A stretch of DNA of 52,765 nucleotides from Rhodocyclaceae bacterium (GTDB taxonomy: Bacteria; Pseudomonadota; Gammaproteobacteria; Burkholderiales; Rhodocyclaceae). The DNA is taken from positions 34,728 through 87,492 of the forward strand of contig PMIH01000030.1 of the NCBI GenBank assembly GCA_003158255.1, given 5' to 3'. The translations under genes and the position numbers were made by a program. Shown here one piece after another: positions 22,082-23,048 of the stretch. Positions within the stretch are counted from its first letter, which is position 1. Each line of letters starts with the position of its first letter. The notes below the pieces were generated by a model. It did not search any database, was not told the DNA's origin, and saw only the letters and a list, made by a program, of their open reading frames with translations.

Positions 22082-22097
22082 TGGCCCGAAGCTTGCG
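22082..22097 (+). promoter_or_regulatory. sigma-54 promoter for the signal-less PhnD-like gene
   Basis: TGGCCCGAAGCTTGCG with GG-N10-GC spacing. The first in-frame ATG after the predicted start site is at 22140. Confidence 0.55.
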
Positions 22098-22139
22098 AGT
22101 GAGGCAGTGACCAGTTCACTTTGCGTAACCCGAGCAATC

Positions 22140-23048
22140 ATGACAACGACGATCAAATGCGGGTTGCTGCCCGGCGAGTCAAAGCCTGTGGTGGAGCGTC
22201 TCAATGAGCCCCTGCGCGCATATCTTGAAATGACGCTGGCGCGTCCTGTCGAACTCATCGTCGGAAAGAACTATGTCGCCACCAGCGAGGCATTGCGGCG
22301 CGGCCAGCTGGACATTGCCTATCTCGGCCCCGTCACCTACATCCTCCAGAGCCGCCACGCCGCGCTGGAACCGTTCGCCCGCCCCTCCCACGGCAGCGGC
22401 ATCGGCCCGACCTTCCGGGCCGCCATCATCGTGCCTGCTTTCAGCACTGTGCGCAGCTTGCGCGAGCTTCGGGGAGCGGAAGTCGCCATGGGGGACTTGG
22501 TATCGACCTCGGGTTCCTGGGTGCCCCGATACATGCTGCTTCAGGCCGGCCTGAACCAGGAGCGAAGCCATACGCGCCGCCACCTTGGCGCCCATGACGC
22601 GGTCGCGGCTGCCGTCGCTTCCGGATTGGTGGCTGCGGGCGGAATTTCGCTCCCGGTACTCGAACGCTTGATCGCTGAAGGCCGGCTTGATGGCAAGAGC
22701 ATTCGCGTCCTCGCGGAGTCCGCCCCGATTCCAGAATATATGTGGACCTTCCGCGAGGGATTGTCGGTGGAATTTCGACAAGCCATGCGCCAGGCATTCA
22801 TCGACCTGAAGGATCCCGCACCGCTATCCACCTTCCGCGCTGATTCCTTCATCCCCGCAGTCGATGCCGATGTCGATCGGGTGCGCATCTGGATGGAACA
22901 CATTCTTCAGGCTCGCCTCACGCCGTCGGCGCTGGAGTCCAGTACGCACCGGAACTTCCATCCTGTGACGCGTACATCCACGAACGCGGCAACAGGAACC
23001 CGAACTGACAGCAAGGGCCGAATCGGCCCATCCAGCGCGGCTTTCTAG
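22140..23048 (+). CDS. PhnD-family solute-binding protein paralogue lacking a signal peptide (predicted cytoplasmic)
   Basis: 302 aa from the ATG at 22140. [30 protein letters not shown] aligns with the mature N-terminus of the exported paralogue at 30747 (roughly 60 percent identity by eye). The C-terminal tail of about 45 aa is Ser/Thr/Arg-rich, and its DNA carries the vnfH enhancer boxes. Confidence 0.7.
22942..22955. promoter_or_regulatory. GTAC-N6-GAAC box upstream of vnfH
   Basis: GTACGCACCGGAAC, about 107 nt upstream of the vnfH -24 element. Confidence 0.4.
22972..22985. promoter_or_regulatory. GTAC-N6-GAAC box upstream of vnfH
   Basis: GTACATCCACGAAC, 30 nt downstream of the previous box and about 77 nt upstream of the -24 element. 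Confidence 0.4.

Follow-up and report, generated by a model that had tools for sequence, protein, structure and literature searches.

The window analysed here, a 52,765-nucleotide stretch of a Rhodocyclaceae bacterium genome (contig PMIH01000030.1, assembly GCA_003158255.1), carries a vanadium nitrogenase (vnf) region in which a gene for a PhnD/PtxB-fold binding protein lies directly upstream of vnfH. The gene is a rediscovery of the VnfZ family named in 2022; its novelty lies in the order of the genes and in an enhancer set within its coding sequence. It appears reasonably likely that the gene is a vnfZ orthologue whose product, a cytoplasmic derivative of VodA, is a vanadate sensor acting on the activator VnfA. 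Confidence stays at this level because the sensor role is transferred from a single species and binding of the ligand is putative. The features on which this reading depends are the following:

21991..22004, + strand: VnfA box GTACGAACCGGAAC, between the divergent vnfZ and TonB-receptor promoters
22082..22096, + strand: sigma-54 -24/-12 element of vnfZ, TGGCCCGAAGCTTGC, from a pattern match
22140..23048, + strand: vnfZ orthologue, encoding a signal-peptide-less PhnD/PtxB-fold protein of 302 amino acids (aa), a VodA paralogue
22926..23045, + strand: codons of the non-conserved, predicted-disordered tail (residues about 263-302), from model confidence and alignment
22942..22955, + strand: distal VnfA box of the vnfH promoter, within vnfZ tail codons and kept in L080 and L081 (the two metagenomic relatives that come closest)
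22972..22985, + strand: proximal VnfA box of the vnfH promoter, within tail codons, overlapping the vnfZ stop in L081
23062..23076, + strand: sigma-54 promoter of vnfH, TGGCACAGCCCTTGC, the same in L080 and L081 bar one spacer base

The name VnfZ was given to Avin_47110 of Azotobacter vinelandii (UniProt C1DIZ7), a homologue without signal peptide of VodA (Avin_02550), which serves a putative vanadate ATP-binding cassette (ABC) transporter as binding protein (Appia-Ayme et al., 2022, Mol Microbiol 118:105; PMC9542535). In a neighbour-joining tree of 88 sequences rooted on PtxB, the 25 signal-less sequences are monophyletic (bootstrap 90/100), with no signal-peptide-bearing sequence within the clade. 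The clade takes in A. vinelandii VnfZ, to which the window protein is 66% identical, and the window protein, sister to that of Parasulfuritortus cantonensis, very probably belongs to it. The positions separating the VnfZ clade from VodA are C7, V17, G86, R146, M252 and L256, of which all but G86 count as shared derived characters. The A. vinelandii gene was recovered as locus L013, 5907-6788, where its stop codon and the ATG of a VnfA paralogue overlap as ATGA, matching the published vnfZ-vnfA3 junction.

At E <= 1e-20 a protein search gave 653 homologues, and among the best 120 clusters (90% identity) 86 are without a signal peptide, 83 of these carrying a Cys immediately before GLLPGE. For the window protein the absence of a signal peptide was judged by a hydropathy heuristic. 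A genome scan with one genome per species gave 79 loci, with a best match of 74% and none near-identical, onto which the window proteins were mapped; 25 of them have the signal-less copy, and in the others the copies are of VodA type and belong to vodCAB operons, mostly placed just behind vnfDGK-orf297-vnfY-like. The first-pass annotation of this DNA had regarded a signal-less paralogue as a rarity and proposed a survey of other vnf clusters; the survey finds the same paralogue to be common in beta- and gammaproteobacterial vnf loci, and with the family already named and genetically characterised the implied novelty does not hold. The window protein passes only the generic subfamily TIGR01098 in NCBIfam, scores 121 bits against a cut-off of 261 for the PhnD equivalog, and has no VnfZ-specific model in that collection. 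Annotation pipelines still name proteins of the VnfZ type as periplasmic phosphonate-binding proteins.

The vnfZ reading frame runs from ATG at 22140 to TAG at 23046-23048 (302 codons), and its product matches PF12974 (Phosphonate-bd, Pfam) with E 4e-58. The start at ATG 22140 is kept across homologues, with N-termini that read M-K-x-I-K/R-C-GLLPGE, and since the signal-less homologues share this Cys-GLLPGE N-terminus, the start codon can be fixed at 22140. The longest possible reading frame spans 22077-23048, from an ATG at 22077; an in-frame TGA at 22023-22025 closes the frame upstream, and no ATG, GTG or TTG was found between that TGA and 22077. The maximum N-terminal extension is 21 aa and non-hydrophobic, with a Kyte-Doolittle(11) maximum of 1.33 versus 2.79 for the signal peptide of the VodA paralogue in the window. 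An export signal is therefore excluded for any transcript, including one that starts far upstream, and a longer N-terminus or a Tat or Sec signal upstream of 22140 was rejected on account of the in-frame stop. The window VnfZ is accordingly predicted to be a cytoplasmic, signal-less PhnD/VodA paralogue. With neither a signal peptide nor adjoining permease or ATPase genes, it does not look like an exported PhnD/PtxB-type binding protein serving transport. The paralogue with which it is compared is encoded as follows:

30007-30750, + strand: ABC ATPase gene, before the vodA-like gene
30747..31625, + strand: vodA-like gene for the periplasmic paralogue with signal peptide (PF12974), in ABC operon 30007-32455 (phnCDE-like, vodCAB)
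31622-32455, + strand: permease gene, after the vodA-like gene

The N-terminus of this second protein reads MSSQTVRIYFLFFLLALATFVAMA followed by AERPNKLVV-GLLPGES. The first-pass annotation had described two PhnD-family copies, roughly 60% identical, of which the one at 30747 bears a signal peptide and sits between PhnC- and PhnE-like genes, while the one at 22140 begins where the mature domain of the other starts, is without any translatable extension that would export it and should be cytoplasmic. All of this stands, with a measured identity of 62% over 260 aa (E 1e-117). VodA (Avin_02550 in A. vinelandii) and the window VnfZ have the same fold and share the ligand pocket, but VodA has a signal peptide and a transporter operon and VnfZ has neither; VnfZ has clade-specific residues and an extended C-terminal helix, WMExILQARL.

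An AlphaFold2 model of VnfZ has a mean predicted local distance difference test (pLDDT) score of 84 over the whole protein. The closest solved structures are those of PtxB (PDB 5JVB, 5O2J, 5LV1; 34-38% identity; Bisson et al. 2017, PMC5700983), and the model is most similar to the ligand-bound closed form, with template modelling (TM) scores of 0.84-0.86 normalised to the target. The two proteins share a Ser-Thr-Ser loop, a His and a capping Tyr. By alignment to Te_PtxB (5JVB), with an offset of +8 in the second lobe, His160 corresponds to H152, Tyr208 to Y200 and the Ser-Thr-Ser loop to S122-T123-S124, residues that are conserved to >=95% in both the VnfZ and VodA clades. PtxB, a periplasmic protein, is phosphite-specific through an Asp22/Tyr208 cap (PMC5700983). 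This phosphite-type cap (Te_PtxB D22, Y208) is not found in VnfZ, where Y200 is kept but the Asp is replaced by Gly12 (LLPGES), as it is throughout both clades. Cys7 lies in strand beta-1, five residues before this pocket Gly.

As judged by alignment, VnfZ keeps every conserved oxyanion-pocket residue of VodA, and since these residues are common to the two clades VnfZ should bind the same ligand as VodA. The absent Asp cap would leave room for a fourth oxygen, in keeping with a complete tetrahedral oxyanion, vanadate for instance. There is a parallel for an oxyanion binder of PhnD fold that serves signalling rather than transport in AioX and ArrX (PDB 6ESK, 6EU7, 6XL2), the arsenite/arsenate sensors of the PhnD family, which give TM scores of about 0.79-0.85 to VnfZ at only ~23% identity. 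AioX and ArrX are, however, periplasmic and act via a histidine kinase, whereas VnfZ is cytoplasmic and contacts its activator directly. AioX feeds AioS/AioR, of which AioR is a sigma-54 activator.

The regulatory role rests on work in A. vinelandii, where vnfZ shares a transcript with vnfA3, to which it is also translationally coupled, and where VnfZ binds both VnfA3 and VnfA1 in bacterial two-hybrid assays and co-immunoprecipitates with VnfA3 only without vanadium (PMC9542535). VnfZ is needed there for class B promoter activation and for vnfDGK repression in Fe-only conditions, whilst deletion of the gene affects class A (V-dependent) genes little, and the authors proposed that V-bound VnfZ leaves VnfA3 (PMC9542535). 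The window and A. vinelandii proteins are alike in being signal-less VodA paralogues with a variable C-terminal tail, encoded beside divergent genes for a TonB receptor and a periplasmic binding protein. In A. vinelandii and its relatives vnfZ runs onto vnfA3 through the ATGA overlap, whereas in the window vnfH lies downstream, the enhancer boxes fall in the 3' codons of vnfZ and no vnfA3 is present. One gene of the window encodes a presumed partner:

11390..12955, + strand: vnfA, whose product has GAF, AAA+ and HTH_8 domains; the window encodes no other VnfA-type activator

With no vnfA3-like gene coupled to vnfZ, the partner in the window is most likely this single VnfA. It is 76-81% identical to VnfA proteins linked to vnfEN, versus 52-71% to those encoded downstream of vnfZ. 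By extension from the A. vinelandii orthologue, VnfZ would report cytoplasmic vanadium status by binding or releasing a VnfA-type enhancer-binding protein, and would in this way tune the choice of sigma-54 promoters that VnfA fires. Activation of vnfZ by VnfA from the promoter at 22082 would then close a feedback loop. The only other enhancer-binding protein of the window, encoded at 50479-52413 (-), was considered as a second VnfA paralogue and rejected, being just 37% identical to VnfA. It is an activator of the GAF-AAA+-HTH sigma-54 type, with a VnfA-box match at 50427.

The VnfA1 motif published from chromatin immunoprecipitation sequencing is GT(T/A)C-N6-GTAC, and the box at 21991 fits it on the complementary strand, with what reads as a degenerate partner, GTTCCGGAATGTCA, at 21960, 31 bp upstream. 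The window has 12 copies of the complementary form of the motif, GTAC-N6-GWAC, where 0.81 would be expected, and 0 of 100 shuffles reached 12; the matches are upstream of vnfA, vnfE, vnfZ (21991), vnfH (22942, 22972) and vnfD (25080; one-mismatch partner at 25051). The sigma-54 promoter with an upstream VnfA site that characterises the VnfZ family is thus represented in the window by the predicted element at 22082-22096 and the 21991 box, in agreement with the earlier proposal that the gene has its own promoter of this kind. Aligning the DNA upstream of vnfZ in the window with that in L080 and L081 told little, and a pattern scan over 27 vnfZ loci was used instead. In 22 of the 27, A. vinelandii included, the start is preceded at 27-93 nt by a TGG-N9-TGC element; the loci without it are L018 and those where vnfZ directly follows vodB. 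In A. vinelandii the RpoN transcription start of vnfZ has been mapped, and its sigma-54 promoter is partly VnfA1-dependent (PMC9542535).

No terminator-like site was found between vnfZ and vnfH, and vnfZ transcription probably reads through into vnfH. A GC-rich hairpin of 10 pairs with a T-rich run behind it (22033-22056, +) sits after the VnfA box and ahead of the vnfZ -24 element; the hairpin scan that includes it found 4 such structures versus 3.0 expected in shuffles, which is not above expectation. A further exact VnfA-box match, GTACTGAAAGGAAC, lies at 27048-27061 (+) in the short vnfG-vnfK spacer and may be due to chance or mark an internal site.

The two boxes of the vnfH promoter are 30 bp apart, the distal one 120 bp and the proximal one 90 bp before the vnfH -24 element, and both fall within the last 35 codons of vnfZ. 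These codons belong to a tail rich in T, S and A, with pLDDT <50 at residues 267-302. In the signal-less proteins conservation extends to WMExILQARLxP, and the tails beyond it cannot be aligned and vary from 0 to 85 aa (median 29). A three-way alignment of the window, L080 and L081 showed both VnfA boxes and the vnfH sigma-54 promoter to be kept, although the L081 tail peptide is unrelated. Compared with L080, synonymous divergence (dS) is 0.22 in the tail and 0.66 in the core. In L080 (10001-10948) a CAG replaces the TAG of the window, so that its vnfZ frame is 13 codons longer and crosses the vnfH sigma-54 promoter. Boxes kept despite a diverged tail, a low tail dS and a shifted stop are together consistent with constraint on the DNA and not on the peptide. 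Rather than a functional module of the protein, the tail is probably a reading frame running into DNA that is constrained as VnfA-binding sites. The first-pass annotation had assigned a low-complexity tail of about 45 aa whose DNA doubles as the vnfH enhancer; the location of both boxes inside tail codons agrees with the predicted double use, and the tail itself is confirmed at a length of ~40 aa.

An unconstrained tail and a drifting stop, together with a weak Shine-Dalgarno sequence before 22140, might also be expected of a decaying vodA duplicate that stays open only since its 3' end carries the vnfH enhancer. The core of the gene speaks against this, with a ratio of non-synonymous to synonymous divergence (dN/dS) of 0.10-0.19 versus three relatives and 71 invariant positions in the alignment of 41 signal-less members, so that vnfZ is under strong purifying selection. 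The clade is also monophyletic across many genera, and the A. vinelandii orthologue has a published phenotype and interactions (PMC9542535); Avin_47110 has in addition been seen by proteomics in V or Fe-only diazotrophy. Decay is hence scarcely credible, and a pseudogene reading is excluded by dN/dS and clade-wide conservation.

The place of vnfZ varies between genomes, with at least four contexts: before vnfA, before vnfH, as the gene that closes vodCAB and in divergent orientation to vnfDGK. The gene lies directly 5' of a vnfA paralogue in about half of the vnfZ loci, among them those of Azotobacter, Azomonas, Azorhizophilus, Plasticicumulans and of Azoarcus and Dechloromonas metagenome-assembled genomes (MAGs). 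It is divergent from vnfDGK in L002, L004 and L014. In three MAGs it is the last gene of a vodC-vodA-vodB-vnfZ series (L016 7527-10870, L020 7521-10786, L059 7465-10771) without a sigma-54 element of its own, which puts both paralogues in one transcription unit. The order of the window, in which vnfZ comes immediately before vnfH in the same orientation, was found in none of the 79 genome loci, and it is shared by L080 (88% identity) and L081 (81%). L080 has the order vnfA-orf-vnfENX ... TonB(-) then vnfZ, and L081 has TonB(-) then vnfZ-vnfH-fdx. As in the window, where the gene downstream is vnfH (23126), vnfZ has no adjacent VnfA paralogue in L080, L081, L002, L004 and L014. Coupling to vnfA3 is a property of the Azotobacter-type locus and not of the VnfZ protein clade. 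In a Rhodocyclaceae MAG (L017, 2654-12949) vnfZ lies between an anfHDGK-like cluster, 55-61% identical to VnfH, VnfD and VnfK, and a VnfA-type activator, a context that fits the published link of VnfZ to Fe-only nitrogenase control.

The vodC-vodA-vodB-vnfZ order in L016, L020 and L059, and probably L015, with no separate sigma-54 promoter, would also suit a protein that assists the VodBC importer from the cytoplasmic side, sensing substrate and gating the transporter by trans-inhibition instead of affecting transcription. Such an accessory has no precedent in the family, in most loci (the window included) vnfZ stands apart from vodCAB with a VnfA/sigma-54 promoter of its own, and the published partners of VnfZ are VnfA proteins (PMC9542535), so that this role is considered very improbable.

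The same operons tie vnfZ to transport and, with the intact oxyanion pocket and the position of vnfZ at the head of a vnfH-fdx-nifX-like unit with no intervening terminator, they may be taken to favour a cytoplasmic vanadate buffer or chaperone. Such a protein would hand vanadate to iron-vanadium (FeV) cofactor assembly (VnfEN, VnfX and the NifX-like protein), much as NifQ and Mop-type proteins do for molybdate, the analogy that the first-pass annotation drew. The A. vinelandii evidence points elsewhere, however, since deletion of vnfZ alters defined promoters and affects class A little and since VnfZ contacts VnfA paralogues (PMC9542535). A vnfA paralogue follows vnfZ in about half of loci, and the literature on VnfZ reports no biosynthetic phenotype. 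We regard this explanation as unlikely, though clearly less so than an importer accessory. Where the first-pass annotation had offered buffering, sensing or delivery of vanadate, sensing is supported through the VnfA3/VnfA1 interactions of the orthologue and its need for V-dependent promoter switching (PMC9542535), and nothing supports the other two.

Several points weigh against VnfZ of the window as a vanadate sensor acting on VnfA. Literature searches for VnfZ and VodA, which turned up one primary paper and one review, found no demonstration of vanadate binding in any organism and no ligand-binding or structural work. The translational coupling to vnfA3, the defining context in the literature, is absent from the window, and no second VnfA paralogue was found within its 52 kb. 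The identity margin is small, at 66% to A. vinelandii VnfZ versus 62% to the VodA of the window. A position at the head of a structural-gene operon fits a stoichiometric or biosynthetic role equally, and the argument from tail dS concerns some 40 codons in one pairwise comparison, a small sample.

A tentative proposal, to which we give somewhat less than even weight, is that VnfZ lost its link to a VnfA3 partner in the betaproteobacterial-type lineage represented by the window, L080 and L081, and became the first cistron of the vnfH unit. There it would either act on a single VnfA as a minimal switch of one activator and one sensor, with the vnfH enhancer inside the sensor gene, or serve vanadium handling in a second role that is not regulatory. 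In both cases VnfZ function would be independent of hetero-oligomers of VnfA paralogues. For the choice between nitrogenase isoenzymes VnfZ is the only candidate cytoplasmic vanadium sensor, known from a single study in one organism. The present locus adds no new mechanism; it shows that members of the VnfZ clade, with the VodA pocket kept, occur widely among beta- and gammaproteobacteria and that vnfA3 coupling is not universal. An organism with vnfZ and a single VnfA would offer a simpler system in which to test vanadate binding and activator control.

The remaining genes around vnfZ are the following:

17149-18528, - strand: NifD-like gene, an orphan of NifD/NifE type (PF00148; 237 bits with the NifD model, far below cut-off)
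18525-19706, - strand: Peripla_BP_2 gene, after the TonB-receptor gene
19625..21795, - strand: TonB-dependent receptor gene, divergent from vnfZ
23126..24013, + strand: vnfH, nitrogenase Fe protein (Pfam Fer4_NifH, E 1e-130)
24034-24234, + strand: ferredoxin gene, after vnfH
24239-24952, + strand: NifX-like gene, after the ferredoxin gene
25270-28486, + strand: vnfDGK, after the NifX-like gene

The pair of TonB-receptor and periplasmic-binding-protein genes stands beside vnfZ in the window, L001, L003, L007, L029, L080 and L081, and the neighbours of A. vinelandii vnfZ, Avin_47130 (TonB-dependent receptor) and Avin_47140 (periplasmic binding protein), are syntenic with it. On the receptor side there are candidate minus-strand sigma-54 elements at 21851 and 21916. 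The trio at 17149-21795 (-) is operon-like, shares the VnfA box at 21991 with vnfZ and recurs in L080. It could serve metallophore uptake under the control of VnfA, although the nitrogenase-like member would then be unexplained.

Upstream, vnfA, an ORF and vnfENX span 11390-16879. The ORF (12956-13495, +), between vnfA and vnfE, has no Pfam or NCBIfam match and is kept in L010, L028, L030, L067, L075 and L080. Its real start is probably near 13085, because the 179-codon version takes in VnfA boxes (12964-13018) as well as a sigma-54 element (13041); the L080 counterpart is called as a 136-aa gene, matching such a start. Downstream, most of the 79 related loci have the vod ABC operon after vnfDGK, and in the window two conserved ORFs lie between vnfDGK and the ABC transporter genes. 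A 297-aa ORF (28523-29416, +) directly after vnfK belongs to no Pfam or NCBIfam family and is found after vnfK in most of the 79 loci at 39-66% identity. A molybdenum cluster at 33308-37029, encoding ModE-like (HTH_1 and TOBE), ModA, ModD-like (QRPTase), NifQ and ModB proteins, adjoins the vnf region, and type I restriction-modification genes lie within 39472-52413 (HsdR-like at 39472, HsdS at 41617 and HsdM at 48982).

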